A stretch of 64,000 nucleotides of DNA from Candidatus Babelota bacterium (lineage in GTDB: Bacteria; Babelota; Babeliae; Babelales; Vermiphilaceae). A model generated the notes under the pieces. The model was not told the DNA's origin, made no database searches, and was given only the letters and a program-made list of their open reading frames with translations. The stretch is from contig JBMOLF010000011.1 in assembly GCA_049325595.1 (NCBI GenBank), forward strand, positions 12,319 through 76,318, given 5' to 3'. The position numbers and the translations under genes are program-made. Position 1 is the first letter of the stretch; each line of letters opens with the position of its first letter. This document shows positions 3,555 through 63,794 of this stretch, in pieces.

Positions 3555-3992
3555 ATGAAATATTTCATATTGTTTTTTGTTACTCTATATGCTGGACAAA
3601 CTTTGTGCATGCAAAAAAAATTAATTACGCTCAATGGCCATACCGCTTCATTAATTGATCATATCGACCGTTCTAAAAAATTAATGAATACTGATCCCAT
3701 AAGCGCAACGCTTATTTTGCGCTATATTGCTACCGAATGCTTGATAGAACGTGGCAATGTATTATGCATTACCCAAGAGGATCTTACCGATATTAAAAAT
3801 GATAATTATGTTTACGTTCCTAAATTTCGTTTTGACAATACCCACTTAAGCGGCAACAAAAAAATATGGGTTGACGCTATCATTGTTGGAACCACTGATG
3901 AAAACCATGTTCACGATCTATCACCCCGATCAATTGACAAAATATTGATTGATAAGCGCGAAGCAAAAAAGAAGAAATATCTAAAATCTTAA
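3555..3992 (+). CDS. Hypothetical secreted protein inside the tro operon
   Basis: AAGGAG RBS, signal peptide ending TLC-MQ. Confidence 0.7.
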   Translation: MKYFILFFVTLYAGQTLCMQKKLITLNGHTASLIDHIDRSKKLMNTDPISATLILRYIATECLIERGNVLCITQEDLTDIKNDNYVYVPKFRFDNTHLSGNKKIWVDAIIVGTTDENHVHDLSPRSIDKILIDKREAKKKKYLKS

Positions 3993-4075
3993 TATTTTAA
4001 AAAAGTACCGTTTTATAGTTTTTGCAGTAAAATAAAGAAATATAACATATCAATTAATTTTACCTTGGTTGTACC

Positions 4076-4819
4076 ATGAACACACCTGCACTGGAAATAA
4101 ATCATTTAACGGTTACGTATCAACATAACCCTGTTTTATGGAACGTATGTGCGTCTATTCCACATGGGGTATTGCTTGCTATTGTAGGACCTAATGGTGC
4201 GGGTAAAACAACAATTATTAAAACCATCCTTGGGCTTATAAAGCCTTTGGCAGGAACTATTTCAATATTTGGAAAACCATCACATACCCAACGACATGCT
4301 ATTGCGTATGTTCCGCAGCGAGCTACGATTGACTGGGATTTTCCCGTAACGGCACGTGACGTGGTATTAATGGGTTGCTATGGTCAACTTGGCTGGTTTA
4401 GAAAACCACAAGCCCAGCATATCCAAAAAGCAAGAGAAGCTCTTTCCCTTGTTGATATGATTGACTTTGAACATCGACCAATTAATAGTTTATCCGGCGG
4501 GCAACAACAACGCGTATTTTTGGCACGTGCACTTATGCAAGAAGCATCTATTTATATAATGGATGAGCCATTTGTGGGAGTTGATATGTTTAGCGAAAAA
4601 GCAATCATTCAAGTACTGCGCCAATTACGCAATCAAAAAAAAACTATTATTGCCGTACATCATGATCTTAATACGGTTAAAGAATATTTTGATTGGACTT
4701 TAATGATCAATAAAAGCTCGATTTCATGTGGCCCAATTGAGCAGGCATTTACTCCTGAACATATTCAAAATACGTATAAACATCATGTTTTTTTTGCTCA
4801 ATCTAATCAGTCATTATGA
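4076..4819 (+). CDS. troB: Metal ABC transporter ATPase (TroB/MntB)
   Basis: GPNGAGKT, LSGGQQQR, MDEPF, HHDL. Confidence 0.92.
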   Translation: MNTPALEINHLTVTYQHNPVLWNVCASIPHGVLLAIVGPNGAGKTTIIKTILGLIKPLAGTISIFGKPSHTQRHAIAYVPQRATIDWDFPVTARDVVLMGCYGQLGWFRKPQAQHIQKAREALSLVDMIDFEHRPINSLSGGQQQRVFLARALMQEASIYIMDEPFVGVDMFSEKAIIQVLRQLRNQKKTIIAVHHDLNTVKEYFDWTLMINKSSISCGPIEQAFTPEHIQNTYKHHVFFAQSNQSL

Positions 4820-5670
4820 TAATATTTGATTACACCTTATTACTGGTTATTCTCGGAACTACCTTGCTTGGCATAACAGCTGGTACATTAAGTACATTTG
4901 TGTTTTTAAGAAAACAAAGTTTACTTGGCGATGCAATTTCCCATGCTGCATTGCCGGGTATTATTTTAGCCTATCTAATCACCGGACAGAAAGACCCTCT
5001 TACGTTAATGGCTGGTGCTGCTTGTGCGGGCACTATTGGTACAGCATTTATCCGCATGGTATTGCGCTACACAACTATAAAAAGTGACACCATTCTTGGA
5101 TTAGTACTATCGGTATTTTTTGGCTGCGGACTGGTACTTATTAGTATTTTAAAAAAGTACCCGACACTACAAGCTCACTCGTTACAGAAATTCCTTTTTG
5201 GTAATGCTTCAAGCTTTACCTCACAAGAAATCTTTATTCTAGCAATAATTAGCATTATCATTTTATTAAGCATAAAATTGTGTTGGAAAGAATTTAAAAT
5301 TTTATCATTTGATCCTGATTATTCTTTTAATAGCGGATTGCCGGTCAAATATATTGATCTGTTTCTTACCTTTCTTTTAATCATCACCATTATTATTGGC
5401 CTGCAAACAGTAGGCGTCATTTTAATGAGTACCATGCTTATTGCTCCGGGAGCAGCAGCTCGACAATGGACTCATCGGCTTGAAACTATGGCCCTGATCA
5501 GTAGTTTTTTTGGCACAATTGCCTGCATCACTGGATCGTGCATTAGTAGCTTATACACCCATATACCCACGGGCCCGACAATAGTAATATTATTAAGTAT
5601 TATTGTTTTTTGTTCATTACTTATTGCTCCTGCGCGTAAAGGAGTAATATGGAGGCTTTTTGCGCAATGA
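4816..5670 (+). CDS. troC: Metal ABC transporter permease (TroC)
   Basis: GDAISHAALPG ABC-3 motif, multiple TM helices, ATGA overlap. Confidence 0.9.
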   Translation: MIIFDYTLLLVILGTTLLGITAGTLSTFVFLRKQSLLGDAISHAALPGIILAYLITGQKDPLTLMAGAACAGTIGTAFIRMVLRYTTIKSDTILGLVLSVFFGCGLVLISILKKYPTLQAHSLQKFLFGNASSFTSQEIFILAIISIIILLSIKLCWKEFKILSFDPDYSFNSGLPVKYIDLFLTFLLIITIIIGLQTVGVILMSTMLIAPGAAARQWTHRLETMALISSFFGTIACITGSCISSLYTHIPTGPTIVILLSIIVFCSLLIAPARKGVIWRLFAQ

Positions 5671-6752
5671 TTACCTTACTATCGCTTCACATCTTATTAG
5701 TTGCTTGTTTAGTGAGTGTTATGTGTGCCATACCGGGTGTATTTTTAGTATTGCGCTCAGTAGCTATGATGAGCGACGCAATTAGCCACGCAATATTACC
5801 TGGTATTGTATTAATGTTTTTTTGGGTGGGCAATTTAGAATCACCTTTACTCTTAGTCGGTGCTGCAATTGCCGGTATTGCAACCGTGTTAGCTACCGAA
5901 TTGCTCATGAGCACCAATCAATTAAAAAAAGATGCTGCGATTGGCTTAGTTTTTCCGTTCTTTTTTTCAATTGGTGTAATTCTTATTAGCATGTATGCGC
6001 GCACCGTGCATTTAGATGTTGATATGGTACTACTTGGCGAGCTTATATTTGCACCATTTAACAGAATGGTTATTGCAGGCTATGATGTTGGTTCATACGC
6101 ATTGTGGAGTACAAGCATACTAATTATTGGCAACCTTATCCTTACTAAATTATTTTTTAAAGAAATTACACTAAGCATATTTGACCCTCAGCTTGCACTA
6201 CTTGCTGGATTCTTTCCGCAACTTTTATATTACGGTCTTATGATTATTACCAGCATAACCGCCGTCACTGCTTTTAATATTGTTGGCTCCTTTGTAGTCG
6301 TCGCCTTAATGATTGCACCTGCAGCTACTGCTTCGTTATTTACTCATTCAGTAAAACAAATGCTTATTGCAAGCACTGGCATTTCATTACTTGCTGCCAT
6401 TAATGGTTATACCGCAGCATATGTGAGTGACGTATCTATTACCGGTTCTATAGCCGTATGCAATGGATTATTATTTGTTATAGCACTACTAATTGCTCCC
6501 CATAAAGGGCTTATGTCACGAATAACCAATCATTATAAAAATATTAAAGCTAAACAATATGCTGTTGTTTTGCATTATTTATCAAACCAACCGTGGATTT
6601 CATCTGCTATTGTTGCTCAACATTTGGGATGGTCTTTAAAGCACATAGAAAATACTCTTGTTTACTTACACAACCAAAAACTTATTGATACTAATCACCA
6701 TGTTACGCAAAACGGCCACCACTATCTGCAAAAAGAAATGGCCGGCAATTAA
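5667..6752 (+). CDS. troD: Metal ABC transporter permease (TroD) with C-terminal winged-HTH-like extension
   Basis: SDAISHAILPG; ATG at 5667 overlaps troC stop; soluble tail of about 75 aa. Confidence 0.88.
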   Translation: MITLLSLHILLVACLVSVMCAIPGVFLVLRSVAMMSDAISHAILPGIVLMFFWVGNLESPLLLVGAAIAGIATVLATELLMSTNQLKKDAAIGLVFPFFFSIGVILISMYARTVHLDVDMVLLGELIFAPFNRMVIAGYDVGSYALWSTSILIIGNLILTKLFFKEITLSIFDPQLALLAGFFPQLLYYGLMIITSITAVTAFNIVGSFVVVALMIAPAATASLFTHSVKQMLIASTGISLLAAINGYTAAYVSDVSITGSIAVCNGLLFVIALLIAPHKGLMSRITNHYKNIKAKQYAVVLHYLSNQPWISSAIVAQHLGWSLKHIENTLVYLHNQKLIDTNHHVTQNGHHYLQKEMAGN

Positions 6753-6815
6753 AGCTCGCTCTTAAAATAACTAATTGTTGCCAAACCCAATCACCACTTT
6801 TTATAGTTTTTAATT

Positions 6816-12053: not shown

Positions 12054-12060
12054 AGTTTGG

Positions 12061-12555: not shown

Positions 12556-12566
12556 GATTCCACTTA

Positions 12567-19281: not shown

Positions 19282-19944
19282 CTATTGCAGTTGTGCAATA
19301 TCATGCATGGTATGAAGTGGCAAGGGCTCTATGTCATCATGAATGCCCATAGCATACAGCTCATTTAATCGCGCTTTTATAAAGCCAATATGCAATGCCT
19401 CAATTGGCGCTAATTCAAGATATCGGGTTGCTATTGGAAGCTCGACGTCAAATTCATGAATACAATCTTTTTCTCTATCAGGGGCGTAAAATGTAATAAG
19501 TGTATTTTTAGGTGCTGCAAAAAAATTACTAAACTTATCCAACAAGCTATTTTTTTCTTCTACTGCTCTACCCTTATATTTCACAGAACTTATAATAGAC
19601 TCTCGTGGGAAATAAGCTGCTAAGGTTTTTAACGCAATAATATCAAATGGACTCTTTCTACAACTATTACCTAACAAATCAAATCCTTCCTTTTCTTCCG
19701 ATTGTGGATTTAACAAGCGTCCAAATAATTCTTTTAGCGCATTTACATCACTTTGGTATATCCGAGGCAAAATAATTGCCCTACTTTTGTTAATTATGGG
19801 TATTTCAATTTGAGCTGAATTACGCAATGGATTTTCTTTGTACGGCACGAAAAAGTTTATAACGCAAGAACTCTCAAACGGTTTTTCTAAAGCTTGTGTT
19901 GTAGATAATTGGATAATACAAAATAATACTAATAAGCGCTTCAT
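19282..19944 (-). CDS. Hypothetical secreted protein, family A member
   Basis: IPIINKSRAIILP motif. Confidence 0.7.
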   Translation of the reverse strand: MKRLLVLFCIIQLSTTQALEKPFESSCVINFFVPYKENPLRNSAQIEIPIINKSRAIILPRIYQSDVNALKELFGRLLNPQSEEKEGFDLLGNSCRKSPFDIIALKTLAAYFPRESIISSVKYKGRAVEEKNSLLDKFSNFFAAPKNTLITFYAPDREKDCIHEFDVELPIATRYLELAPIEALHIGFIKARLNELYAMGIHDDIEPLPLHTMHDIAQLQ

Positions 19945-20306: not shown

Positions 20307-21026
20307 TTATTTCTTTTTATCTTTTATTTCTTTATAAACCTTTGCAGCGGATAAAAATGGTTCTAGTTGTTTTTCTTTTGAGGGCTCTAATTTTTCGGCT
20401 GTCGCTGCAATGTTATCCAAATCTATTGGTTCATAGACATCATTAATATATTTATTGAATATATTATGTATTCCGAAAGCAATCTCTTTAAACTCATATT
20501 GCGTTACTGGATAAGCAAAATTTAATTGACGAGAAGCAGTAAAAGGAACAGTAAAATCAAAAGAGCGATTTAAAGAAGTTACATATTGCCTAAATTTAAA
20601 GCAGATCGGTGAATTTAGATATAAAGTTTGTTCATCGTTTACTGAATTCTTTATGTTAGAGGTAAATTTTTTTTTAAAACAAGAAAGTAAATCAAGTCCA
20701 ACGCTAAAGCCTATGCCTTCGGTATAATAGTCCATAAAATTTTGCAAATCTTTTGGCTCGCCTTTTTTTATTTTACTACATTCTTTTTTATCAAATGAGT
20801 AGATTAAACTCTCACAGCAGGTTTTGGCTATTTCTCCGGCATCTTCACCATCAGGCAACTGTATGGTGCGATCACCAGGCAAAATAGGAATTCGGGCTCG
20901 TAAAATTTTGCCTGGCTTCATCAAATTAGGAGCGGTAATACAAACTTGTAAGGGTTCTTGATTTTGTTTTGAATCCATAGCTACAAGAGCGGTTGTACTT
21001 GCCAAAAGAAGTAATAATTTTTTCAT
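20307..21026 (-). CDS. Hypothetical secreted protein, family A member
   Basis: Signal peptide LVA-MD; IPILPGDRTIQLP motif. Confidence 0.7.
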   Translation of the reverse strand: MKKLLLLLASTTALVAMDSKQNQEPLQVCITAPNLMKPGKILRARIPILPGDRTIQLPDGEDAGEIAKTCCESLIYSFDKKECSKIKKGEPKDLQNFMDYYTEGIGFSVGLDLLSCFKKKFTSNIKNSVNDEQTLYLNSPICFKFRQYVTSLNRSFDFTVPFTASRQLNFAYPVTQYEFKEIAFGIHNIFNKYINDVYEPIDLDNIAATAEKLEPSKEKQLEPFLSAAKVYKEIKDKKK

Positions 21027-23103: not shown

Positions 23104-23475
23104 CTATTCTTCAGAGTGAATTATGGCCTTAAGAGCACATTTATTTTTTTGTAAGCTTGCAGGCAAATAACCTTGCTCATAGACATGCCATTGCCTTAAT
23201 AAATATTTTTTTTGCATTTCAGCTTGGTAAAAAATTAAAAAACGGCCACAAAATGGGCGTTTCGGTTTTCTAGCGTTTACATTATTTTGTTGCGGGGTGA
23301 CCAGCAACTGAGCACTATTGCACACATGCACAGATGCTCCCATCCAGGCATTAAACTTATCTTTATTTTTTTTGCAAGAGCAATCAAGCTTTTGCTGATG
23401 CACCACAGGCCTTTTTTCAGACATTCCATATAAAAAATTGCTGGTTAACAAACAAAGAATTACCGCTACAAACAT
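23104..23475 (-). CDS. Hypothetical secreted protein
   Basis: GAGG RBS; signal peptide LYG-MS. Confidence 0.55.
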   Translation of the reverse strand: MFVAVILCLLTSNFLYGMSEKRPVVHQQKLDCSCKKNKDKFNAWMGASVHVCNSAQLLVTPQQNNVNARKPKRPFCGRFLIFYQAEMQKKYLLRQWHVYEQGYLPASLQKNKCALKAIIHSEE

Positions 23476-26862: not shown

Positions 26863-27831
26863 TCATTTTAAAGTAAGCTTATGATAGATTTCATTGTTTT
26901 TGTATTGCTCAAAATTTTCTTTTGCTTGTTGCAAGCATTCAGCAATAGTTTGCACTGATAGTAAAAAATTAGGCTTTAATTGATGATGCGGATTGTAAGA
27001 TGAACATTGAGGTTCATTTATAAATTTTACATATCCTCTGAAAATAGATAATAATTGAGTAGACTTTAAATCAAATAACAATGTTTTCCATCCCCAGGAG
27101 GTACAACAGCATAATTTCACAAAAGAAGGATAATTTTGGCAATAGGTCATATCTGTTACTAAATGTATTTGGCCAGACTTTGCATTTCTTTTCAAACTAT
27201 TTTCTATTACTGCATTTGCTATCAGCACGCGACTTGTAACGCTTTTATCTTTCTTAAGCAGATGCTCTTCAATGCCACTTTTTGAATAAGTAATTACCAT
27301 ATTTTTAGCCTTAAAAAGAGCGGCCGCAATATTTTCTTTAAGAACAATGATATGTTGCGGATTAATTGTTCCCTTATCACGATCGTATTCAAATATGCGC
27401 ATATCTTTTTCTCTGGCTTGGATCCATCTATTTTGTGCGAAATCAATTGCATATACAAAATATCCACAAGGTAAAGCGCTGTCATATTGGTTGGTTTTTA
27501 AGTTTTGAAAATCATACAAGCGGCTAGAAGATACTATAATGCCATTTTTATTAGGACCAACTATTAAATTTTCTTGTTTAACATTTTCTTTTTGAGAATC
27601 AGTTAACATCTCATCTTGCTGTGATAGATTGGTAATTTTTTTAATACAAAGTCTTACATCTGATCTATAATTATCATCAGCATAACACCAAATTTTTTCT
27701 TGCAATTCTTGGGGCAATTGAAAAAATTTTTCAAAAAAAGAAATTGCTTCACCTCTATTCCATTGTCCATTTTTATGCTCCATGCTCTGAAGCTTTATAC
27801 CTAATAATAATATTAATATTATCTTGCTCAT
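26863..27831 (-). CDS. Secreted F-box-like protein (family B)
   Basis: LQS-ME; FQLPQELQEKIWCY; GPNKNG. Confidence 0.72.
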   Translation of the reverse strand: MSKIILILLLGIKLQSMEHKNGQWNRGEAISFFEKFFQLPQELQEKIWCYADDNYRSDVRLCIKKITNLSQQDEMLTDSQKENVKQENLIVGPNKNGIIVSSSRLYDFQNLKTNQYDSALPCGYFVYAIDFAQNRWIQAREKDMRIFEYDRDKGTINPQHIIVLKENIAAALFKAKNMVITYSKSGIEEHLLKKDKSVTSRVLIANAVIENSLKRNAKSGQIHLVTDMTYCQNYPSFVKLCCCTSWGWKTLLFDLKSTQLLSIFRGYVKFINEPQCSSYNPHHQLKPNFLLSVQTIAECLQQAKENFEQYKNNEIYHKLTLK

Positions 27832-27923: not shown

Positions 27924-29201
27924 TTAAGGCAATAATCTTTGGCTTGTAGCCCCTGCATCTATTTTTTGTTGATAATTATTTCGGATTTGTGCAACAAAGT
28001 TGTCCAGGGGAACAAAACGCAATAATTTTGGAGGCATGTTATCTAAATTTCTCTCATTATTAATTTGTCCTGAACAACGACGCGTAAGCAAAGAATCAAA
28101 TAATCCTATTTTCTCTAAAAAAAATGAAGTCGGAATTAGTTGATCTCCTGTATATTTACATAAAAGCGCCGCTTCTTTTTTGTTTTTTGCAACATCATTA
28201 GTATACGCAATATGCACTAACACACGCGTTGGATCTGATAGAGAAATTTCTATATCATTTATCATTGCATTGTTTACTGGGCATGATAAAAGTGTTAAAT
28301 AGCGAGTTACAAACTCATTGGTAAGCAAAGTTTTAATAATAATATTTTTAGGATTGCCCCTAATTACTGTTATTACATTATCAATCTCTTTAGAGGGATC
28401 AACAACTTCTTTAACTAGAACTACTGCTTTATTCTTTAATTCAATGCCAAGCCATTGGTCTGCACAAAGTATATCATAGTGCAGTTTTTTCAAATAAATA
28501 TCGGCAAGAACCGCTCCCGTAAGAACACTCCTACATATAAGAGAACGCTTAATTCCATCTTTTAAATCTCCTGCATTGAATGAAGTTACCATTTGACTAT
28601 CGGTAATTCTTGGAATTACAGACCATTGCGTGGAGTTTGGATACAAAATTTTTTCATCGTTTTGCCCAGGAGCCCCAGAGTTATGATTGACCTGATCAAC
28701 AAGCTCTTGAATTGCTATTTTTTTATTTTCATCATAATAAAATTGGTAAACTCCTGAACCATAAACAAAATAGCCTTGCTTATTAGGTCCACTCACTGAT
28801 TTTTCCAAAAAAACAAAAGGATTTTTGAATTGAATATATTTTTTTAGATCTGGTACTTCGACGTGTGATTTTAATGAATAATTTGAAGGTAAAGTATCTA
28901 AAAAATTTTTAAATCGCTTAGTTTGGAAAACGTTTCTGATACTAAACTCTTGCCAATATTCTTTTGCTTCTTGGGTTACTTGTTGTTCTGGTTGTGGTAC
29001 GGGTACTGGCATAACAACAGATCCAAAATAGGTTGCTTCAGGAAAAGCATGTGTAATAATTTCGGTCGTTAGTTCTGGCGGTAATTCAGCAAGCAATTTA
29101 TCCAATTTAAATTCATTATTTACTCGATGTTCATGGTCATTCTTTTCCATAGCAGGACAAGAAAAAATCATTAAAAGACTTAAAAAGACGTATTTATGCA
29201 T
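27924..29201 (-). CDS. Secreted F-box-like protein (family B)
   Basis: CPA-ME; LAELPPELTTEIITHA; GPNKQG. Confidence 0.75.
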   Translation of the reverse strand: MHKYVFLSLLMIFSCPAMEKNDHEHRVNNEFKLDKLLAELPPELTTEIITHAFPEATYFGSVVMPVPVPQPEQQVTQEAKEYWQEFSIRNVFQTKRFKNFLDTLPSNYSLKSHVEVPDLKKYIQFKNPFVFLEKSVSGPNKQGYFVYGSGVYQFYYDENKKIAIQELVDQVNHNSGAPGQNDEKILYPNSTQWSVIPRITDSQMVTSFNAGDLKDGIKRSLICRSVLTGAVLADIYLKKLHYDILCADQWLGIELKNKAVVLVKEVVDPSKEIDNVITVIRGNPKNIIIKTLLTNEFVTRYLTLLSCPVNNAMINDIEISLSDPTRVLVHIAYTNDVAKNKKEAALLCKYTGDQLIPTSFFLEKIGLFDSLLTRRCSGQINNERNLDNMPPKLLRFVPLDNFVAQIRNNYQQKIDAGATSQRLLP

Positions 29202-29315: not shown

Positions 29316-30506
29316 TTATTTTATTTTCCGCAATTGAGCAAGTGCAAAACTTTTTAGGCAATAATCTTGGTCTTTAATTGCTGCATTTATTTTTTGCTGA
29401 TAATTATTTTGTACTTGTGCAACACAATCATTTACCGGCACAAATCGAAGTAACTTTTTTGCAAGAGGATAGGATCTTTTTAACAAATATTTATCACAAC
29501 GATGCGTAAGAATAGAATCGAAAAAACCGACAATTTCATTGAATGTTAAAACAGGAATCAGTCTTTCTTCTTGAAAGGCACAAAGTACCGATATTTTTTT
29601 AGGTTTATTATTTTCTTTGCCAGTTGAAACACAAATAAGGATTCGTTGTGCATTTGTTAAAGAAATTTGAAAATCTAAAATCTCAAAATCTTTTTCGCTT
29701 ATTGCAGCAGAACTATGTAAAAGACAAAAATCTAAAAGTTCTTCTTGTGTTAATATAGTTTTTTCATCTATCGCTTTTTTATTTTTCTTAAAAAGAACTA
29801 TGTCTTTATTAGATCTAACCATCCAACTCTTTTTTTGATCGTTTCCATGCGATACATAATACTGAATTTGATAAATAGGACTTTCTGTACATGTGTAATT
29901 CGTGAATTTTTTGGTTTTTAAATTTGCTAGCTCATAGGTATCGGCTGGCGCGTCTTCATAATCTGGAAATCCAAAACATTCAGCATCAAGCGGGTGAATT
30001 GCTTTTACAACCATATGTTTTTCATCATCATCTGAAAGTTTAATTTTCTTATCTTGCTCATACGAAAATTTACACATTAAGCCATATCCAGCAACAAAAT
30101 ATCCTTCTCTATTGGGACCGGCTACTTTGTGTGGAACTTTATACTCTAGCAAAGGATCACTTTCAAAATATTTTCTAAAAGCGCTTTGTTCTGGCAATGT
30201 TTTATAAAATTCTTCAAACTTTTTTGTTTTAAAAATATTTGTTTCATTAAGCTCCTGCCAATATTCTTTTGCTTCTTGGGTTATTTGATCTTCTGGTTGT
30301 GGTACGGGTACTGGCATAACAACAGATCCAAAATAGGCAGCTTCGGGAAAAGCCTGAGTAATAATTTCAGTCGTTAGTTCTGGCGGTAATTCAGCAAACA
30401 ATTTATCTAATTTAAATTCATTATTTAGCCAATGTTCTTGCTCATTCTTTTCCATGCTATAACAAGAAAATATTATTATAAGACTTAAAAAGACGTATTT
30501 GTACAT
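29316..30506 (-). CDS. Secreted F-box-like protein (family B), recent duplicate of 27924..29201
   Basis: Start MYKYVF at 30506 by alignment with paralog; FAELPPELTTEIITQA; GPNREG. Confidence 0.75.
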   Translation of the reverse strand: MYKYVFLSLIIIFSCYSMEKNEQEHWLNNEFKLDKLFAELPPELTTEIITQAFPEAAYFGSVVMPVPVPQPEDQITQEAKEYWQELNETNIFKTKKFEEFYKTLPEQSAFRKYFESDPLLEYKVPHKVAGPNREGYFVAGYGLMCKFSYEQDKKIKLSDDDEKHMVVKAIHPLDAECFGFPDYEDAPADTYELANLKTKKFTNYTCTESPIYQIQYYVSHGNDQKKSWMVRSNKDIVLFKKNKKAIDEKTILTQEELLDFCLLHSSAAISEKDFEILDFQISLTNAQRILICVSTGKENNKPKKISVLCAFQEERLIPVLTFNEIVGFFDSILTHRCDKYLLKRSYPLAKKLLRFVPVNDCVAQVQNNYQQKINAAIKDQDYCLKSFALAQLRKIK

Positions 30507-37693: not shown

Positions 37694-38254
37694 ATGAAAT
37701 TTAAATTAATATTCAAAAAATTAATATTTTTATCGACACTGTTTATCGCATGTTCAACAAAGCCTATGCAAAACAAGCCAAGCTCACTTCTAAGAACAGC
37801 TGTGGACTTTTCCGCTTCATGTTTAGTAACCGGACTTTGTCACGAGCTGGGACACGCAATACCTGCTCAATTATTTTTTAATAATGTTGCTGGCATACGC
37901 ATTGGGCAAGGACCCAGTATTAAATTTAACATTGCCAAATTTTTCTTAGAAATAGGACTATACCCATTTTTGGACGGTCAAACGGTATTTACAACGCCAA
38001 ACTTTGCAACAAACACCAAAGCAGATTTATTTAAACTATTAATTACAGTTGCAGCAGGTCCTATATCAGGAGCAGCTTCATGCTACGGGCTATTTAAAGC
38101 TCTTAAAAATAATTACATACAAAGTAATCCCACTATGGGAAATTGTTTAAGGGCTACATTTTTGTTGCATCTCATAAACTTTCTACCTGGTGAAGGATTT
38201 GATGGAAGTAAAATTTTACAAACATTATTCCTACTAATCAGACATAAGAAATAA
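37694..38254 (+). CDS. Minimal M50 metalloprotease with signal peptide
   Basis: CHELGH, AAGPISG, NFLPGEGFDG. Confidence 0.82.
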   Translation: MKFKLIFKKLIFLSTLFIACSTKPMQNKPSSLLRTAVDFSASCLVTGLCHELGHAIPAQLFFNNVAGIRIGQGPSIKFNIAKFFLEIGLYPFLDGQTVFTTPNFATNTKADLFKLLITVAAGPISGAASCYGLFKALKNNYIQSNPTMGNCLRATFLLHLINFLPGEGFDGSKILQTLFLLIRHKK

Positions 38255-42826: not shown

Positions 42827-43285
42827 ATGAATAAATTGTTATTATTTTTAACTTTTTTTGCAAATATGGCCTTTGCAATGGAGATTAATCTAAGCTCCAA
42901 TGGGAAAAAAGTAAAATTAGATGGCGAAACAAAAAAAGTTATAAAGCTCGTTAACAAATTAAGCAAAGCTACCATTTTAGATGTAGAAGTAAAAGATGAG
43001 AATGGCAAAGTGAAGGACTCAATCATGAAAAAAATTGATCCAAAAAGCAAAGATGCTATTTTTATCGCTCCAAATACTACCGCGCATATTCGCGGACAAA
43101 CAGAGCATGGTCCAATTTCAATGGATTTTACTTCTGGCGAATTTAAGATTTGTAAAGAAGATATTAAAGCTTTAGCTAACAAGGATAATAAGGAAAAAGA
43201 AAAGAAGGCCAAAAAAAGATCTTCTACCCTTCCTAATTCACATAAGAAATCCGTAGCTTTTGCTGATTTAGCTAAAAAAAAATAA
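42827..43285 (+). CDS. Hypothetical secreted Lys-rich protein
   Basis: Signal peptide AFA-ME; basic tail. Confidence 0.7.
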   Translation: MNKLLLFLTFFANMAFAMEINLSSNGKKVKLDGETKKVIKLVNKLSKATILDVEVKDENGKVKDSIMKKIDPKSKDAIFIAPNTTAHIRGQTEHGPISMDFTSGEFKICKEDIKALANKDNKEKEKKAKKRSSTLPNSHKKSVAFADLAKKK

Positions 43286-45349: not shown

Positions 45350-45868
45350 ATGAATTTTTCTCGTTTAACCCTGATTGCTGGGGTTTTTATATTGTTTGCT
45401 GGAAATATGCACGCAATGTATAAAAATACACAAAGCTTTGATAAAAAGTCGTTTTTATTGGGCAATCAAATAGTAAATTCATGTATTCCTAAATATTCGA
45501 CTGAATTTCCTGACGAACTCAAAACCAAAAAAATAAATCCACTTATTAAACCATCTTGGATAAAAAAACAAACTAAAGCTTTTAAAAGCCAAGCTATTAT
45601 CACCGCAGGATTTACTGCAGGTATTTACGTTGGCTATACCTATTTAAAAGGGTACATGCCCGCAACAGCAAAGCATGTTACTAGTACTGTAAATGCTGGT
45701 GTAGAAAATCTTAAAAACTTTATTACCAAAGAAGTAAGCGAGCGCCTAGATACACTATCTAAAAAATTTGAAGATTTTAGAAAAGAGAATAAAGAAGCTC
45801 ATAACAAAACTCATCAAGACCTTAATCAAATAAAAAAAGATCTTAATGAATTAAAACGAAAAATATAA
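45350..45868 (+). CDS. Secreted protein with TM helix and C-terminal coiled coil
   Basis: GGAGG RBS; MHA-MY; hydrophobic segment; heptads. Confidence 0.7.
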   Translation: MNFSRLTLIAGVFILFAGNMHAMYKNTQSFDKKSFLLGNQIVNSCIPKYSTEFPDELKTKKINPLIKPSWIKKQTKAFKSQAIITAGFTAGIYVGYTYLKGYMPATAKHVTSTVNAGVENLKNFITKEVSERLDTLSKKFEDFRKENKEAHNKTHQDLNQIKKDLNELKRKI

Positions 45869-45890: not shown

Positions 45891-46961
45891 ATGAAATTTT
45901 TAACAAAAATAGCTCCAGTTGCATTACTGAGCATATTGCTCTTCCCAACAGCATCACATAGTATGATGGGGCGCGCATTAGGTGGCTTAGCTGGCGGCGG
46001 CTTAGTAGTTGCCGGAGCCTACGGTGTAGAACGATATGGTGATCGCTTAGGATCTGTATTTGCTCGTGGCACGCAAACTGCTCAAGAGCAAATCGTCAAT
46101 CAAACATCTCGAAACATTGAAGAACTTACTAACAAAGTGGCTGATGCTACTGGTAAAAGCAGCAATTTAGCAGAGACATTATTACGCCAAGCAGATAGAA
46201 CACTAGCGGTCGCTGAACGTATTGTTGATTCTAAATTGTTCCCTTACGTAGTAGTAGGAGGAGCTGGATATTTTGTTTATCGCAAAATTCAGAAAATATT
46301 ATCTGGAAATAATGCTATTAAACAAGATACGGAAGTTATCGATAAAAAGGCTGATGCTATAAAACAAGACACTCAAGCTATCGATGAAAAAACTAATGTT
46401 ATTTTACAAAAATTAAATGAACTTAAAGCTTGGATCTTTGGCGACGGCACTAAAACAAGAGCACAAATAGCAAAATCAGAAGAAAAAATTGTTGGCGTGA
46501 TAACCAAACTCGAAGAAGAAATTTTATCAGGCATGGGAATTCTTGTTCAAGAAATAACTAAACTTGATATAGAAACACAAAAACAATTAAAACTTATTTT
46601 GCATAATCTTGATAGACTTAACCTCTCTCAAGAAGAATTTAAAGCCATGCTTTTAAGTAAAGATGAAGATTTGCGTAAAATTATCACCAATCTTGAAATA
46701 GCAAACAAGGAAATGTTTAAACAAATTCGTTCTGAAACAGCAGAACTCAATAAAAAAATGGACGCATTAAGCAAACAAAATAGCGCAATGGCTGGAGATA
46801 TTTCAGAAATCAAACAAAACTTATCAGAGTTTATGGTGTATATGTGCATGAAAACACCTACAATAGCGCAGAACACACAGCCAACTTTTGCTGATAATTT
46901 AAAATTGTATTGGCAATCTAAATCAAACCCCGTGAATTTAGCTGGTACTGATATTAAATAA
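45891..46961 (+). CDS. Secreted protein with Gly-rich hydrophobic segments and long coiled coil
   Basis: GGAGG RBS; GGLAGGGLVVAG; YVVVGGAGYFVY; 14-aa tandem repeat. Confidence 0.72.
   Translation: MKFLTKIAPVALLSILLFPTASHSMMGRALGGLAGGGLVVAGAYGVERYGDRLGSVFARGTQTAQEQIVNQTSRNIEELTNKVADATGKSSNLAETLLRQADRTLAVAERIVDSKLFPYVVVGGAGYFVYRKIQKILSGNNAIKQDTEVIDKKADAIKQDTQAIDEKTNVILQKLNELKAWIFGDGTKTRAQIAKSEEKIVGVITKLEEEILSGMGILVQEITKLDIETQKQLKLILHNLDRLNLSQEEFKAMLLSKDEDLRKIITNLEIANKEMFKQIRSETAELNKKMDALSKQNSAMAGDISEIKQNLSEFMVYMCMKTPTIAQNTQPTFADNLKLYWQSKSNPVNLAGTDIK
46312..46395 (+). repeat. Two 42-bp in-frame tandem repeats (AIKQDT..ID.K)
   Basis: ATGCTAT.AAACAAGA.AC..AAG.TATCGAT.AAAA at 46312 and 46354. Confidence 0.8.
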
Positions 46962-47053: not shown

Positions 47054-47848
47054 ATGCTCATGAAAAAATTAATCTTTTCGTTATTAACCTCTTTATCTCT
47101 TTGCGCTATGGAACGAAATAATAGCTATTATGTACCTGCCGTTGCGCAAAAAGAACTCACTCACATCACAGAAGAACAATTGTCTGCCATACTTCCTGAT
47201 GATCAACTTTCATCACAAGGAGTTATAACTTCGCTCGTGGTACGCCCACAAGAACATTATCGTACATTGGTAAATGAGCTAGTGATTACTCCTGAAGGGA
47301 TTGAGGGAGACAAACATGTTAACTCAAAGCCTCATTATGCTCTTGATGTAGTAACTCTTATGCGTTCAGATGTTTCTGACGCTTTGGGTGGAGCTCATGT
47401 TCCTGGTGATAATATCCACGTAAAAGGTATGAAATTAAGTAAAAAGAACATAAAAGCAGGTGACTTAGTTATCGTCAAAAATCAATCTACAATAAAGGCT
47501 GTATTACTTAAAACTCACATTCCGCATTATGCATGTTGGAAACTTACAGCAAGATGCGGTAAAACAGCATTTGATTTTCTTAATGCTGAGGGAAATTTTC
47601 TAAATGGTTATGGATCTATCCACGGTCTTCGTGATAGGCTACGCGGTATACGTTTATCTGTTTTAAAATCTGATGAGCCAGTGCGCATTGGTGACTTGGT
47701 AGCAATAGCAACCAAAGAACAAAAAGATTTAATACTCGCAGATAGCCAAATACATGGTGAATATCAAAAATTACTTTCAATGAGTATTGAAGTTGGCAAC
47801 ACCCTGAAAAAACAAGAAAAAGCAAAGCGCGCTTTGCGTAATAAATAA
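47054..47848 (+). CDS. MOSC-domain protein with signal peptide
   Basis: ITPEGIEGD, PGDNI, PHYACWKL..RCG, RLRGI...V..GD. Confidence 0.75.
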   Translation: MLMKKLIFSLLTSLSLCAMERNNSYYVPAVAQKELTHITEEQLSAILPDDQLSSQGVITSLVVRPQEHYRTLVNELVITPEGIEGDKHVNSKPHYALDVVTLMRSDVSDALGGAHVPGDNIHVKGMKLSKKNIKAGDLVIVKNQSTIKAVLLKTHIPHYACWKLTARCGKTAFDFLNAEGNFLNGYGSIHGLRDRLRGIRLSVLKSDEPVRIGDLVAIATKEQKDLILADSQIHGEYQKLLSMSIEVGNTLKKQEKAKRALRNK

Positions 47849-47913: not shown

Positions 47914-48162
47914 ATGAAAACATATTTCTTCTTTTTTTTCTTATTTTCATCAAGCATTGCGTTTGCAATGGATACACCAATAGAATTTTTAGCTGATATT
48001 TCACGCTTTAATCAAGAAACCACTGACATTGAAGATGTTGATGCTGAGTTGGTTTCCAAATTAATACGAGATATCAAGAAAAAATGGGGCTACGAGAGCT
48101 TGGTTAAATCACCTGAGATGCAGCCAAAAAATTATTTAAAAGACATTAGTTTAGAAAAATGA
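47914..48162 (+). CDS. Small secreted hypothetical protein
   Basis: Signal peptide AFA-MD. Confidence 0.6.
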   Translation: MKTYFFFFFLFSSSIAFAMDTPIEFLADISRFNQETTDIEDVDAELVSKLIRDIKKKWGYESLVKSPEMQPKNYLKDISLEK

Positions 48163-48587
48163 CTATGAATATTTTTTTTACTTTACTGGCATTTTTACTT
48201 TTTCCATTTCCTTACGTAATAAGTATGGAAAAAAACAACACCTTACAAGATGAATTAATACCTGATGTATACTTAAAGGGCTACATTGCCACCCTTAAGC
48301 ACCTGGTAACAAAAGAAGAAAACAAGCAACAATTTGCAGAATTAGAAAAACAAATCGAAGAGAAAAAATTAGCTATAAAGTCTCTCAAAAAAGGTTTTGA
48401 TGAGTCTAAGGCAAGCGTTTTTGATAAGCTAACTTACTTAACAACCATAAACACCATTGGCCGCGAACTTGAATTATTGCAACGGCAATATATTAGCTGG
48501 CGAACTGAAATTTCGCTCTTTAAACAAATTATGCTAACTACGCTAAAAAAACAAAACCAGCAAATCAGGCACAAAAAGCACCAGTAA
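48159..48587 (+). CDS. Secreted coiled-coil protein
   Basis: VIS-ME; heptads; ATGA overlap. Confidence 0.65.
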   Translation: MTMNIFFTLLAFLLFPFPYVISMEKNNTLQDELIPDVYLKGYIATLKHLVTKEENKQQFAELEKQIEEKKLAIKSLKKGFDESKASVFDKLTYLTTINTIGRELELLQRQYISWRTEISLFKQIMLTTLKKQNQQIRHKKHQ

Positions 48588-51547: not shown

Positions 51548-52168
51548 ATGAAAAAAATATTCTTTGTGCTGCTCTTCTGTTGCATGCAGTTAAATTATTC
51601 TATGGAAAATGATCCTAAATTTATAGAAACAAAATACCAACATTGGGATCCCCTTCACCCAGTTGAAGAACCAGCCCAAGAGCCCCATAAAACAGTTACT
51701 TTATTTTTGCAAGCTTTAATGAGTAAACAATTAACTTTTGATAATCAAAAAAAAGCTTTTATTATCAAACATGCACCAGATTCACCACCATCAGCAAGAA
51801 GCTTTGTACAAAAACATGAACAAACGGCTATCTCTTTATATGAAGCAAGTATTATCGTTCGAGGAATTAAAAATAGTTTTTTAGAGCGCAGACCTATAAA
51901 ATTTGATTTAGAAAAAAAACCAATAAATTATAGTCGATCCATTGAAGAGTTTGATGATTTTTACCAAGGATATGATTTATCAAATGTTAAAAATAAATCA
52001 GAAATTTTAGACATAAGAAAACAATTGGTTGAATCAATATCTCAAAAAATTCCCTTATTAATTAGCAAGTTGTTAGAAGCTAATTATACGCTAATGCCCG
52101 CATCAAATCAGAAAATAGAAAAAAAATCACCAAAAAAACATCGCAAATCAAATTGTCACTCACAATAG
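51548..52168 (+). CDS. Hypothetical secreted protein
   Basis: Signal peptide NYS-ME; basic tail. Confidence 0.7.
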   Translation: MKKIFFVLLFCCMQLNYSMENDPKFIETKYQHWDPLHPVEEPAQEPHKTVTLFLQALMSKQLTFDNQKKAFIIKHAPDSPPSARSFVQKHEQTAISLYEASIIVRGIKNSFLERRPIKFDLEKKPINYSRSIEEFDDFYQGYDLSNVKNKSEILDIRKQLVESISQKIPLLISKLLEANYTLMPASNQKIEKKSPKKHRKSNCHSQ

Positions 52169-54279: not shown

Positions 54280-54301
54280 GCATTATTATGTTACTTTTAA
54301 A

Positions 54302-55651
54302 TCAATGCATAGGGTTTAAAGATCTACCATATGCACGTTCCAATCGCTCATGCGCCACATGAAGATCATAATATTTCTCAATCAATTTCTTCTCAGCGTA
54401 AAATAAATTTAATTGAGCTTGAAATGCAGTAATCATATTAAGTTGCAAGGTATGAGCATAGGTATATGCATAATCGATCCCTTTTTCATAAGAAGGAATA
54501 ATTACATTATTATATGATTCAATTTCTTTTTTTATCTTATCAATTGATACATATGAATTACGTAATTGCTCTTGTATATCAATTTTAGTAGCCCTAAAAT
54601 CTTTTCTTGCTTTTTCAAACTCAAATTCTGCTTTTGCTATTTGGGCATAATTAGTATCAAAAATAGGTATGGTAAAATTAGCTGCAAAACCAAATCCTCT
54701 AAACGGTCTATCAAAATCTTGTTTATAGGCAGGGCCTATAGTAACATCTTTCCAAATACGTGATTTCTCATATCGTACGGTATGCTCGTATCGTTTCATT
54801 CTATAATTGATTATTTGGATCTCGGGTCGGTACTCAAGCGCATAAGATTCAAGTTCATTTAAAGATGGAACACTGAAATCAGCAAGTATTGTATCAGTAA
54901 GAAGGATCAACTTTGATGATGGAGTAATTCCAAGTACTTTTTTTAAATGTATATAAGCTCTTTTTTGTTGCTCTTCAAGCATAGCAATATTTACTTTAAC
55001 TGATGACAGTTGAGCATCTATATTATACTTGTCAAGATCATCTGAATAACCAAATAATTGTCTATAGTATATTTCATTTTTCAGTTCATTAGTATAAAAT
55101 AAGATTATTTTTTCATTTTCTAGTTGAAGATTTGCATTAACGCAGGCATCATAAGCACATTTGACATTTTCTACGGTATCTAAAATAGTTGTTAAAATGC
55201 GTAACGTAGTAATTTCAAGCTCATCTTCAAAAATTTTTTTTCTAAAAGGAATTTGCCAAAGATCAGATACTGTTCCTGTTAATGCATTTTCAATATTAGT
55301 TTGGGAAGGTACACCTGAAGTAGAAAAACGAAACACATTATTTGTTTGAGGATTTGTATACAAACCAGCTTGTATTAAATCGGCTTTAGCAATACCTAAA
55401 TTTTCAAAATCTGATTGCAATACTGGATTATTCATTAAGGCAATTTCTACCGCTTTTTGCCTGCTTAATCCTTTTGAAAAGCTATCTTTAATAGTTGCTT
55501 CAATATTTTGATCATATCGACTATCATAAATAATTTCTGAGCCAGTAATATTTTTTGTAGTTTTTTTTAATTGATGAAATTCTGGTTCAATATGTACTTT
55601 TTTACATGAAGGAATAATGAAAAACAAAATTATTAATAATGCTTTTTTCAT
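54302..55651 (-). CDS. TolC-family outer-membrane lipoprotein
   Basis: Lipobox-like IPSC; AVEIALMNNP.LQ, A.ADLIQAGLYTNP, IPIFD.N. Confidence 0.88.
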   Translation of the reverse strand: MKKALLIILFFIIPSCKKVHIEPEFHQLKKTTKNITGSEIIYDSRYDQNIEATIKDSFSKGLSRQKAVEIALMNNPVLQSDFENLGIAKADLIQAGLYTNPQTNNVFRFSTSGVPSQTNIENALTGTVSDLWQIPFRKKIFEDELEITTLRILTTILDTVENVKCAYDACVNANLQLENEKIILFYTNELKNEIYYRQLFGYSDDLDKYNIDAQLSSVKVNIAMLEEQQKRAYIHLKKVLGITPSSKLILLTDTILADFSVPSLNELESYALEYRPEIQIINYRMKRYEHTVRYEKSRIWKDVTIGPAYKQDFDRPFRGFGFAANFTIPIFDTNYAQIAKAEFEFEKARKDFRATKIDIQEQLRNSYVSIDKIKKEIESYNNVIIPSYEKGIDYAYTYAHTLQLNMITAFQAQLNLFYAEKKLIEKYYDLHVAHERLERAYGRSLNPMH

Positions 55652-56940
55652 GCATTTACCTTCATGCCATAATCACGGCCTGAAACATCCTGCCCCTGTT
55701 CTAATGGATGTTCCCATTTAGCGTTTGGATCTTTTGGAATTACATGAAAAATGGTAAACATACCACCATGGGGCATAACACCTAAAGGCACATCTGCATG
55801 AGCATTCATGACATGATGTACCCTATGACAATGAAAAAACCACAACCCAGGATTCCAGGCAACAAATTCTACATCACGAGCAGCTCCTGGTGGGACATCC
55901 ACGGTATTACCGGGCCATTGAGCAGATTTAGGAATAGGACCCGCCTCAGTACCAACCGTCCACCAGGTATGGCCATGAATATGAATAGGATGATTATCCA
56001 TACTCATATTAATAAGACGGATTCGAACCCGCTCTCCTTGATTTACGGTAAGAGTAGGAATTGAAGGGGAAGATTTTCCATTAAAGGTAAACCAATTAAA
56101 ATCCATGCTTACCAAATCTGGATCAACATTACCAGGTAAAATACGCCATTCTTGTAACGTAATAACAAATTGTTTATCAATATGATGATCATATTTTTTA
56201 GGATGAATAATAAGGGCTCCCGTTACTCCATACCCTGCTAATTTCATCAAATTAAATTCACCATGATAAAACGCAGTTCCTGATTGATATAGCGTGTACT
56301 CGTAGATCCTCGTTTGACCTGGCATAATTATAGGCTCAGCAAAACCACCAGCACCATCTTGATCATTTGGCAATTCTATGCCGTGTGAATGTACCGAAAG
56401 TGGTTCGGGTAATTCATTAGTAATAACTAAACGAATACGATCGCCTTCATACGCTTCAATAGTTGGTCCTGGACTTGTCCCATTAAAACCCCACGCTCGA
56501 ACTTTTTGCACAATATCCTGATGGTGCAATAAATGGGGAGGAATTTTATTTTTTTCAGGTATTAGTCGATCATAATCAGCGGGTTTGCCATCAGTGATAT
56601 ATTGTTCAATAGGTTGTGCATAAAGACGAAATACCTTAACATTACCATCCATCTCATAGCCAAGCGGTTCAATACCTGGCGTTATGCATACTCCCATTTG
56701 TTTACCGGTTAATGGCGGTTGAGGTGAAGGTTTTATTTTTTGATTAGCCCATGAATAAGAAAATCTTTGCACTGGTTTTTTACTATTTTTTTCTTTTAAC
56801 TGTCGCGGTGTTAATGGTTTTCTATGTTGCAATGGACTTGTGGCAACTGAAACCTTTTTATGATTAAATACAGCATGCGCTTCATGCTGTGCAAAATTTT
56901 TACAAAAATAAAACATAAAAATCACTAAATACTTCTGCAT
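55648..56940 (-). CDS. Two-domain multicopper oxidase
   Basis: GFNGTSPGPTIE, SVHSHG, HPIHIHGH, WFFHCHRVHH.M; start likely MQKYL. Confidence 0.88.
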   Translation of the reverse strand: MQKYLVIFMFYFCKNFAQHEAHAVFNHKKVSVATSPLQHRKPLTPRQLKEKNSKKPVQRFSYSWANQKIKPSPQPPLTGKQMGVCITPGIEPLGYEMDGNVKVFRLYAQPIEQYITDGKPADYDRLIPEKNKIPPHLLHHQDIVQKVRAWGFNGTSPGPTIEAYEGDRIRLVITNELPEPLSVHSHGIELPNDQDGAGGFAEPIIMPGQTRIYEYTLYQSGTAFYHGEFNLMKLAGYGVTGALIIHPKKYDHHIDKQFVITLQEWRILPGNVDPDLVSMDFNWFTFNGKSSPSIPTLTVNQGERVRIRLINMSMDNHPIHIHGHTWWTVGTEAGPIPKSAQWPGNTVDVPPGAARDVEFVAWNPGLWFFHCHRVHHVMNAHADVPLGVMPHGGMFTIFHVIPKDPNAKWEHPLEQGQDVSGRDYGMKVNA

Positions 56941-57135
56941 CCAACTACTCAAGAGAATTGGGTATTTCTATTTTTGCCCTATGCTATCATTACTAAAGAA
57001 CATTTAACAAGATAAGATGCTTTAGATTAGATAAAAGCCTTATCTACCATTAGATAGCTTATTTTTTTCCACATACTTAAAAGCCGATAAGGCAACATGA
57101 TACTTTGTAAGAAAATATCTTGCTAAGAGGATTTC

Positions 57136-61045: not shown

Positions 61046-61090
61046 AAAAAAAGCGGGTCCTTATGTCACACATGGCGATCATAAGGACCC
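61046..61090 (-). terminator. deaD terminator
   Basis: GGGTCCTTATG/CATAAGGACCC 11-bp stem with A-run. Confidence 0.8.
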
Positions 61091-61111
61091 TTTGGGTTAT
61101 TTTGTATATAT

Positions 61112-62803: not shown

Positions 62804-62927
62804 AGATAACTCACTTATGTAAGGGTTTTTTATAAAAATTACGCTATGGATAGCTGAGGGTTTTTGATGCTGTGTTAGGGCACCACTATCCAAAAGCACC
62901 CTATCATAAGCTCTAAATTCAATAATA

Positions 62928-62955
62928 ATTGTAATACAACTAGAAAATTTGTCAA
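62928..62955 (-). promoter_or_regulatory. Sigma70-type promoter of deaD
   Basis: TTGACA-N16-TACAAT about 125 nt upstream of the start. Confidence 0.7.
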
Positions 62956-63008
62956 ACGGATTGAAACGAATATAAATACAAGAAAACTATATAAAATACA
63001 GCAATTTG

Positions 63009-63794
63009 TTAAGTTTTTTTAATTGTTCTTTGTTCAATTATTGGAACCTCTTCTCCGTTAAAGGTCAATGTTAGTTTATGCATATCGGGTATTTGAGTAG
63101 GGCTCCACCCAAGCCAATAAACACCCGTTTTTGTAGTCATTACAACAGGAGAGGCATCAGGAGGTAAATGCTGATATTTTTCCAATATTTGTTCTCTTAT
63201 TGTTTGTTTAGGCCACTTTTGTTCATCAGGTGAAACGCCAATATCTGGAATTTTTAAAATAGCATCAATTTCTTCTTGCGTTAGAGGCTTGTCTTTATCA
63301 GAATCTCCATAGAGCGAACGCAAAAGGTCAACCTGTAATTCTTCTTCGATCACAGTTGGCAATTGCTGTTTAATATGTTCACAATTTCGTGAATTTCTAC
63401 GAGATACAGGCCGAGATTGAAAGGGACTTGTAGGTGGCGTAGGAAGCAAAACTGAATAAGAAGGTTTTCTTTTATGCAAACTAGGAGCCGCAGAAGTTTT
63501 ACTTCGAGCTGCACTAACTTTAGTGATTTCAATAACAGGCTGCTGCGGAGATTTTACTGTTCTTTTTATTTTACGATTAATTTTTGCTACTGTTTTTTTA
63601 AAAAAAACAGAAAACGAAGTAACTCCAGCAGTTAGGGCTGCGCAAGCTATCACATAATTAGCACGTACATCATTTTTGAGCATTGTTTTAATAAAATTAG
63701 AACAATGCTCAATGGTATTTTTAATATAAAAATTTATATCTAGAGGCATACTAGCTTGATGCCAAAATAACATAATCAATAATATATATCTCAT
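63009..63794 (-). CDS. Secreted/membrane protein with Pro/Ser/Arg-rich disordered region
   Basis: Start MRYILL; QAS-MP; TM helix; PTPPTSPFQSRPVSRRNSR. Confidence 0.7.
   Translation of the reverse strand: MRYILLIMLFWHQASMPLDINFYIKNTIEHCSNFIKTMLKNDVRANYVIACAALTAGVTSFSVFFKKTVAKINRKIKRTVKSPQQPVIEITKVSAARSKTSAAPSLHKRKPSYSVLLPTPPTSPFQSRPVSRRNSRNCEHIKQQLPTVIEEELQVDLLRSLYGDSDKDKPLTQEEIDAILKIPDIGVSPDEQKWPKQTIREQILEKYQHLPPDASPVVMTTKTGVYWLGWSPTQIPDMHKLTLTFNGEEVPIIEQRTIKKT

Follow-up and report, generated by a model that had tools for sequence, protein, structure and literature searches.

The 64,000-nt window analysed here, which lies on one contig (C11) of a Dependentiae genome (Candidatus Babelota bacterium), contains 17 genes whose products start with a hydrophobic, signal-peptide-like stretch that ends directly before a second methionine, as an inspection of the letters alone (the sequence-only reading) had indicated. 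This junction Met is a genome-wide trait and not peculiar to the window. A uniform classifier was used, in which a protein is called Met-type if a cleavable-looking signal ends in a small residue followed by Met at the junction. In this genome 117 of 419 such signals (28%) were Met-type, compared with 2 of 89 in control loci from other bacteria (p=4e-9). On balance, and with modest confidence, we favour an account in which Sec signals are cut before the Met by a single signal peptidase I, and a selected Met-acidic mature N-terminus then acts after cleavage as a tag.

Register of the junction methionine and the true start

The genome surveyed comprises 1.29 Mb on 24 contigs (95% complete), and the window itself is GC-poor (approximately 0.34). 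Open reading frames (ORFs) were called with a crude heuristic caller (1379 genome-wide), and signal peptides were assigned by in-house heuristic rules, which let some membrane and cytoplasmic proteins into the denominators. As a control set we used 80 loci (1.31 Mb) from non-Dependentiae bacteria, a by-product of a TypA neighbourhood search for synteny; the 31 loci among them with a GC content below 0.40 (570 kb) form the low-GC subset. A signal-like N-terminus was found in 620 of the 1379 crude ORFs (45%) versus 185 of 1406 in the control loci, and residue 2 is Lys in 298 of the 620. For published Dependentiae genomes, signal peptides are reported on nearly half of the proteins (PMC6561590 gives 44% for Chromulinavorax), a value that our 45% matches, and the other traits described below also agree with those genomes. 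The features of a Sec signal (a charged n-region, an h-region of about 8-15 residues and a polar c-region) were recognized heuristically in the 419 ORFs that include the 117 Met-type ones. Register statistics refer to 157 cases, Shine-Dalgarno and clustering statistics to 127 strict cases, and all other classifier-based counts to the set of 117.

The excess of Met was also seen when the residue X was counted in the pattern [AGSTC]-X-[DE] behind a signal-like N-terminus. X was Met in 70 of 209 cases here and in 0 of 45 in the controls (Fisher p=1.5e-7), the low-GC subset contributing 0 of 26. Among the same 209 cases, Ser (31) and Gln (28) were less frequent, and Ile, Leu, Phe and Val together accounted for 28. 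Likewise, of 715 ORFs with a hydrophobic N-terminus, 96 have Met directly before the first charged residue, at a background Met frequency of 1.76%. The 127 strict cases fell into 106 BLAST clusters, 95 of them singletons, indicating independent origins.

The residues before the Met follow the pattern of signal peptidase I sites, as far as such sites can be predicted, and in exact register with the Met. Position -1 is A, S, G, T or C in 127 of 157 cases and position -3 is aliphatic or small (L/I/S/A/T/V/C/G) in 131, whereas position -2 is small in only 35 and mostly bulky. Among the 127 strict cases, 77% have a Shine-Dalgarno match of at least 4 bases ahead of the first ATG and 1% have one ahead of the inner Met; the reference values are 59% for the real starts of non-signal genes and 5% for random internal Mets. 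The start chooser preferred the inner ATG over the signal-like extension in no gene, so this comparison is not biased by the chooser. Given the small residue exactly at -1 and the Shine-Dalgarno sequence at the first ATG, cleavage directly before the Met is the best reading of these N-termini.

The sequence-only reading had also suggested that translation may start a second time at the inner Met, giving a cytosolic isoform in addition to the exported one, and the same figures bear on this. Such a design needs an in-frame ATG at a fixed place, as is found, and conservation of an ATG and conservation of a Met look alike in the sequence. The inner ATG has, however, fewer Shine-Dalgarno matches than random internal Mets, let alone real starts (59-77%), and shows no excess of -10-like hexamers (TANNNT; 30/117 versus 105/302 before non-Met cut sites) or of GGA/GAG/AGG words (22/117 versus 61/302). 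An internal start also has no need of the exact -3/-1 register. Dual initiation thus found no support, and we regard it as quite improbable.

Another explanation would be that the genes truly start at the Met and that the hydrophobic stretches are chance upstream extensions in an AT-rich genome. Hydrophobic residues are indeed encoded by T-rich DNA, and some window genes give the idea a foothold: for the gene at 47054 the chooser took a later GTG (47237, Shine-Dalgarno score 5), with no Shine-Dalgarno-like match before the first ATG, and the genes at 47914 and 48159 score 0 before theirs. Against this stand the empty low-GC controls, the Shine-Dalgarno matches before the first ATG, the Lys/Arg of the n-region, the -3/-1 register and frames that are open in all cases. 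The AT-rich controls and the Shine-Dalgarno placement exclude a pure artefact, and we give the explanation as a whole an extremely small chance.

The residue after the Met is equally distinctive. It is D, E, N or Q in 82 of 117 Met-type proteins (Glu 50, Asp 19); these residues account for 37% of the +2 positions behind non-Met signals and for 21% of the proteome. In the register set it is acidic in 73 of 157, whereas residue 2 of native non-signal N-termini is Asp or Glu in only 53 of 759 (7%) and most commonly Lys. The third mature residue is basic in 34% of Met-type proteins. The unit is therefore Met-[Glu/Asp]-[Lys/Asn/Gln], unlike a normal protein start of this genome.

As for the machinery, the genome encodes SecA, FtsY lies in the window, and a single LepB ORF scores above the TIGR02227 cut-off for signal peptidase I. 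This ORF (342 amino acids; G000:C1:92606-93430) aligns to the signal peptidase I model as two pieces separated by an insertion, a split kind that is common to many Dependentiae; several genomes have two LepB copies. Two other kinds of leader were considered and rejected. A lipoprotein signal for signal peptidase II would have Cys and not Met after the small residue, and a lipobox-like Cys upstream of the junction Met occurs only in the protein encoded at 37694. A type IV prepilin leader is short and basic, with Gly at -1, and the cut is followed by Phe or Met and a hydrophobic stretch with Glu at +5, while here the hydrophobic stretch stands before the Met; the one true pilin in the Met-type set (N_methyl, PF07963) is a false positive.

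Conservation, protein classes and spread across the phylum

Conservation was read from paralogs, from one 20-kb stretch of a congener and from one conserved envelope protein. The alignment extends to the mature N-terminus in 115 paralog pairs, of which 31 were Met-Met (about 8% expected), 52 non-Met and 32 mixed, part of the mixed pairs being due to misclassified Met-type members. The Met-Met pairs have a median identity of 32%, and their flanking positions are 6-52% identical. The congener stretch (genome G073, locus L251) is syntenic, in inverted orientation, with window positions 18.4-42.7 kb; three orthologs of Met-type window genes could be detected here, at 25-52% identity, and each of them keeps the junction Met. 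The third case is a protein that 118 of 121 Dependentiae genomes encode; of its 30 retrieved orthologs, 26 have a signal peptide. The junction residue ahead of a conserved D-N-P-H-F-Y stretch is other than Met, mostly Ile, in 24 of the 30, and it is Met in this genome. In this protein the Met came in by substitution, when the signal was already present. Judging from the paralogs and the congener orthologs, the Met at the junction is under selection. In the congener, TypA is 94% identical and the neighbouring secreted proteins are 25-64% identical. Orphans are replaced in place: the gene at 21026 is missing, and a different Met-type orphan occupies the position of the gene at 23475.

Met-type and non-Met proteins differ in kind. 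Proteins from approximately 66% of the genome could be referenced, namely 83 of the 117 Met-type and 192 of the 302 non-Met ones; the Pfam scan covered these 83 and, of the 192, the first 96. A family was found for 16 of the 83 versus 44 of the 96 (p=2e-4). The Met-type matches were ankyrin (six), LRR (two), WD40, PLD, GH1, GNAT, a chagasin-type protease inhibitor and BamA; the remaining two (pilin, epimerase) were false positives. The non-Met matches included a Prc-type S41 peptidase, BamD, Skp, MlaD, M23, SpoIID, NamZ, thioredoxin and SOD, but also 11 collagen-repeat proteins, six ankyrin proteins and a DOT1-like methyltransferase, and SecA is one of several cytoplasmic proteins that entered the set falsely. 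Nearly all housekeeping proteins of the envelope belong to the non-Met class. In the relatives sampled, homologs were found for 15 of 117 Met-type versus 91 of 302 non-Met proteins. By these predicted features, the Met class is the young, accessory and largely host-directed part of the secretome. The sequence-only reading had expected a bias toward orphan and eukaryote-like over housekeeping proteins; this was borne out as a trend, while the Met is no exclusive mark of effectors, as the ankyrin proteins and BamA illustrate (see below).

Several secreted proteins of both classes deserve mention in their own right. The 11 signal-bearing proteins with collagen-triple-helix repeats, all non-Met, are clustered on contig C1 (about 0.1-54.6 kb); two have a BclA C-terminal domain, and glycosyltransferases of the GT2 and animal-like GT6 types lie among them. 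On contig C10 (L164:15445-16122), a non-Met protein with a signal-like N-terminus carries a DOT1-like histone methyltransferase domain and is a eukaryote-like candidate effector. A signal-bearing inhibitor of papain-like proteases (chagasin family, I42; L179:5740-6099) is plausibly aimed at host cysteine proteases. Two GNAT acetyltransferases have signal-like N-termini (L176:9936-10562 and L200:5429-6034), one Met-type and one non-Met. They were considered as modifiers of the exported N-termini, and this was dropped, as comparison with solved structures gave generic GNAT matches or none.

The same data speak for and against the possibility that the Met is a footprint of gene history. A signal peptide would have been joined to the front of an ORF that once began at this Met, which would now mark young genes and be itself functionless. 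The scarcity of homologs in relatives fits this view, as do the 67 of 83 Met-type proteins without a Pfam family, the window orphans without relatives (0 of 60 genomes of the family for the gene at 21026; only itself and its paralog for that at 29201) and the non-Met core envelope proteins. A relic should not, however, outlast its flanks in paralogs of about 32% and congener orthologs of 25% identity, nor be gained by substitution in a protein of 118 genomes whose orthologs already carry signals. Moreover, the residue after the Met is acidic, unlike a native residue 2, and an identical, precise fusion would be needed in each of the 106 clusters. We therefore think this history unlikely.

The rule is present in partial samples of most Dependentiae families searched. 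The relatives were sampled as stretches of 40-200 kb from 16 further genomes in 10 families; the genomes are related, and the counts indicate rather than measure. Met-type proteins among cleavable-looking signals numbered 14/53, 5/30, 11/45 and 2/14 in family f1, 13/45, 3/18 and 6/10 in f2, 4/13 in f3 and 11/26 in f10, where the rule is present. It is weak in f4 (2/24), f7 (3/24) and f9 (1/6). Family f5 (8/67) shows no convincing case, none of its Mets being followed by Asp or Glu, and no case was seen in the samples of f6 (0/12, 0/5) and f8 (0/17). The kind of LepB (full-length, or split with a weaker match) was considered as the determinant and rejected, since genome G002, which has the full-length kind, shows a strong Met rule (6/10).

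This spread is one of the observations that would suit neutral drift, in which the LepB of Dependentiae tolerates or mildly prefers Met at P1', or a mutational bias supplies it, without any downstream role. A single LepB serves both classes, the strength of the rule varies between families and the rule is unseen in some samples, and Met exchanges with Leu, Ile and His between relatives. A general preference of the enzyme does not, however, predict a rule that is class-specific within one genome, heritable within families and coupled to an acidic +2 residue, and other hydrophobic residues are rare at that place (28 for I+L+F+V versus 70 for Met). We consider drift distinctly unlikely.

Window proteins and their neighbours

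All 17 N-termini of the window translate with the dipeptides that the sequence-only reading had quoted: each runs from Met, usually followed by Lys or Arg, through a hydrophobic stretch to a Met at residues 14-25. In most of them a Shine-Dalgarno-like word lies 5-10 bases before the first ATG, and in none before the second. The classifier assigned 12 of the 17 to the Met-type, two more are in register by eye, and the register is doubtful in three. The claimed spread over unrelated proteins held as well, the 17 forming 15 BLAST clusters (E<=1e-3), with 29201/30506 and 33553/37694 as the paralog pairs (genes are named here by their start position). Most of the 17 have no Pfam family. Of the fold labels that had been attached to them, M50 is supported by Pfam, for 37694 only, whereas F-box, M48 and MOSC are unsupported.

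The first Met-type gene (3555..3992, plus strand; Met19, LC-MQ) encodes an orphan without a Pfam family and has a Shine-Dalgarno score of 5 before its first ATG. The minus-strand orphan at 20307..21026 (Met17, VA-MD) had no match in any of 60 same-family genomes, the congener included. It is followed by a further orphan on the same strand (23104..23475; Met18, YG-MS), identified by translation and classifier. Three related minus-strand orphans come next, at 26863..27831 (Met17, QS-ME), 27924..29201 (Met18, PA-ME) and 29316..30506 (Met18, YS-ME). The second and third are paralogs and the first is a distant relative of both, with Met1 invariant in the alignment. A search of a 5.8-billion protein set with 29201 returned only the protein itself and its paralog, while 30506 has a congener ortholog of 25% identity that also has a small residue followed by Met. 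An F-box identity of these three found no support in Pfam: 10 proteins scanned at E<=1 gave no F-box family. The proteins share just an L-P-x-E-type motif in their alignment, and an AlphaFold2 model of the N-terminal 143 residues, made for this check, was unusable (predicted local distance difference test, pLDDT, 39.9).

The remaining classified orphans are on the plus strand. Those at 36457..37458 (Met21, SA-MP), 42827..43285 (Met18, FA-ME), 45350..45868 (Met23, HA-MY) and 51548..52168 (Met19, YS-ME) and the small one at 47914..48162 (Met19, FA-MD) were identified by translation and classifier; the gene at 48159..48587 (Met23, IS-ME) overlaps the stop of the latter. The two plus-strand cases in register by eye are 45891..46961 (Met25, HS-MM), an orphan with a Gly-rich mature start that was translated as quoted but removed by the filter for a polar mature part, and 47054..47848 (Met19, CA-ME), whose start is less certain given the GTG taken by the chooser.

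The doubtful cases differ among themselves. The small HExxH protein at 32960..33553 (minus strand; Met19, HP-MD) has Pro at -1 and a better cut site two residues upstream, and its congener ortholog (52% identity) keeps P-M-D. The Peptidase_M50-like small protein at 37694..38254 (plus strand; Met25, KP-MQ) also has Pro at -1, with a lipobox-like Cys four residues upstream of the Met; it probably has no Met at +1, and its congener relative reads C-M-D. The weakest case, 63009..63794 (minus strand; Met16, AS-MP), has a short hydrophobic core and Gln at -3 and was not classed. Three small proteins with an HExGH motif lie close together (32960-33553, 35835-36401 and 37694-38254), and 33553 and 37694 are 31% identical.

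Four genes served as comparators. The protein encoded at 19282..19944 (minus strand) has Leu (TTA) at the junction (QA-LE), and its congener ortholog has Met at the same place (QA-ME). As the sequence-only reading had stated, the junction Met is absent from the TroA/AztC-like metal-binding protein (2625..3545, plus strand) and the multicopper oxidase (55648..56952, minus strand), both with signal-like N-termini, and from the TolC-family protein (54302..55651, minus strand), which has a lipobox-like Cys after its signal. The latter two belong to a copper cluster (53308-59313) that also includes a P-type ATPase of the CopA type. A search of the congener G073 at E<=1e-50 gave no CopA, so the cluster may be an accessory island. 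Elsewhere in the window, three tandem paralogous minus-strand ORFs of 164-172 residues (11535-13079) have similar N-termini with hydrophobic segments.

Possible roles of the mature N-terminus and comparison with known systems

In the account we favour, a Sec-type signal peptide would be cut by LepB directly before the Met. Approximately 28% of the cleavable-looking signals, mostly those of orphan or repeat-domain, host-directed proteins, would thereby mature with Met-Glu/Asp(-Lys/Asn/Gln), and selection would keep the Met as the first mature residue of a short N-terminal tag that works after cleavage. Cleavage before Met leaving Met-Glu/Asp/Asn/Gln, as first proposed from the letters of the window, agrees with the register, the Shine-Dalgarno placement, the acidic +2 residue, the class bias and the controls. 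The motif is confined neither to this window nor to effectors. One option is that the tag marks cargo for a step beyond the periplasm, by export through a secretin-type system or in vesicles. The genome contains two secretins and two T2SSE-type ATPases, which could serve a second export step, and the available text of the Chromulinavorax paper describes vesicle release (PMC6561590). The other option is that the tag provides a eukaryote-like, non-destabilising end that resists methionine aminopeptidase in the host cytosol. Methionine aminopeptidase does not trim a Met that stands before an acidic residue; such an end is not destabilising in the classical N-degron scheme and belongs to the NatB substrate class. 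There is a further, tentative possibility, which we think doubtful: Met-Glu/Asp may be an export code of Dependentiae, in which Sec transport is followed by a secretin or vesicle step, or by host uptake, that reads the first residues, and the host may acetylate the N-terminus through NatB.

A number of points weigh against the favoured account. NatB is known to act mainly during translation. Ala or Ser at +1 would be stabilising in a eukaryotic cytosol as well, which means that stability in the host cannot by itself account for the choice of Met. Most signals have no Met, which is thus not required for cleavage. Position -1 is Pro in 9 and Thr in 21 of 157 cases (together 30), both unusual for signal peptidase I. 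In two further ortholog pairs the congener protein has Met where the window protein has Leu (TTA) or His; Met has been lost or gained between congeners, and the constraint is therefore not absolute. The ankyrin proteins of the scanned sets are split into 6 Met-type and 6 non-Met, and BamA, which was matched in 46 of 46 genomes of a phylum search, is Met-type both here and in genome G001. Finally, the counts rest on a crude ORF caller and partial genome samples, and cut sites, N-termini and localisation are predicted.

Dependentiae are widespread, almost uncultured parasites of protists. Most Babela ankyrin proteins carry signal peptides (PMC4378268), and the accessible parts of the published genome papers report no known injection system (PMC6561590, PMC4378268). 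With many signal-bearing proteins and no known injection system, the exit route from the cell is an open question. A literature search, which did not cover subscription journals and supplements, found no description of a Met-first rule. The word 'methionine' occurs 0 times in the Babela (PMC4378268) and Chromulinavorax (PMC6561590) papers, and 'signal peptide' occurs 0 times in the available part of the TM6 comparative paper (PMC4776705). A sequence mark that splits the secretome into accessory, host-directed and housekeeping proteins is a direct handle on the exit question and predicts candidate effectors. It also gives one-residue mutants to test, and it cautions that gene finders may start Met-type genes at the wrong ATG.

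Residues after a cut are known to address proteins elsewhere. In the lipoprotein +2 rule and the Bacteroides lipoprotein export signal, residues after the cut, often acidic, direct later sorting to the inner or outer membrane, the surface or vesicles. Those rules act on a lipidated Cys at +1 produced by signal peptidase II, whereas Met-type proteins have no lipobox, with 37694 as a possible exception. Eukaryotic NatB substrates have Met-Asp/Glu/Asn/Gln N-termini and are acetylated as nascent chains at the host ribosome. By this sequence criterion, 82 of 117 Met-type proteins would start with such a dipeptide; Glu is far commoner here than Asn or Gln, and arrival in the host cytosol is hypothetical.

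The nearest precedent in kind is the Q-rule of Bacteroidetes, where Gln stands at P1' of most signal peptidase I substrates, periplasmic ones included, and is cyclised to pyroglutamate by a known cyclase (PMC5837995, PMC10653852). As far as the available parts of these papers describe it, the Q-rule is likewise a phylum-restricted first-residue rule on an ordinary Sec signal; it was detected through sequence statistics and is believed to bear on what becomes of the mature N-terminus. The Dependentiae rule differs in having Met instead of Gln, an acidic +2 residue and about a quarter of signals instead of most, and in sparing housekeeping envelope proteins, and no enzyme that would modify its N-termini is known, none having been searched for; Gln itself accounts for only 28 of 209 cases in the [AGSTC]-X-[DE] test. 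It would be the second phylum-level rule for the residue after a signal-peptidase cut.

The nearest precedent in logic is Plasmodium, where the mature N-termini left by cleavage of the Plasmodium export element (PEXEL), and not the entry signal, decide effector export (PMC10653839; bioRxiv 10.1101/2023.07.12.548774). In both systems, to the extent given in the accessible text of these sources, a hydrophobic entry signal is followed by a cut (a predicted one in Dependentiae) that exposes a short N-terminus (with E, Q or D as the second residue in Plasmodium), and the proteins belong to fast-evolving effector families. Plasmodium, however, is a eukaryotic parasite in which plasmepsin V cuts at RxL in the endoplasmic reticulum, whereas the proteins studied here lack RxL, LepB presumably makes the cut and export beyond the periplasm is hypothetical. 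Should Met-Glu/Asp indeed be an export code, Dependentiae would offer a bacterial parallel to the Plasmodium principle by which the mature N-terminus determines delivery to the host.

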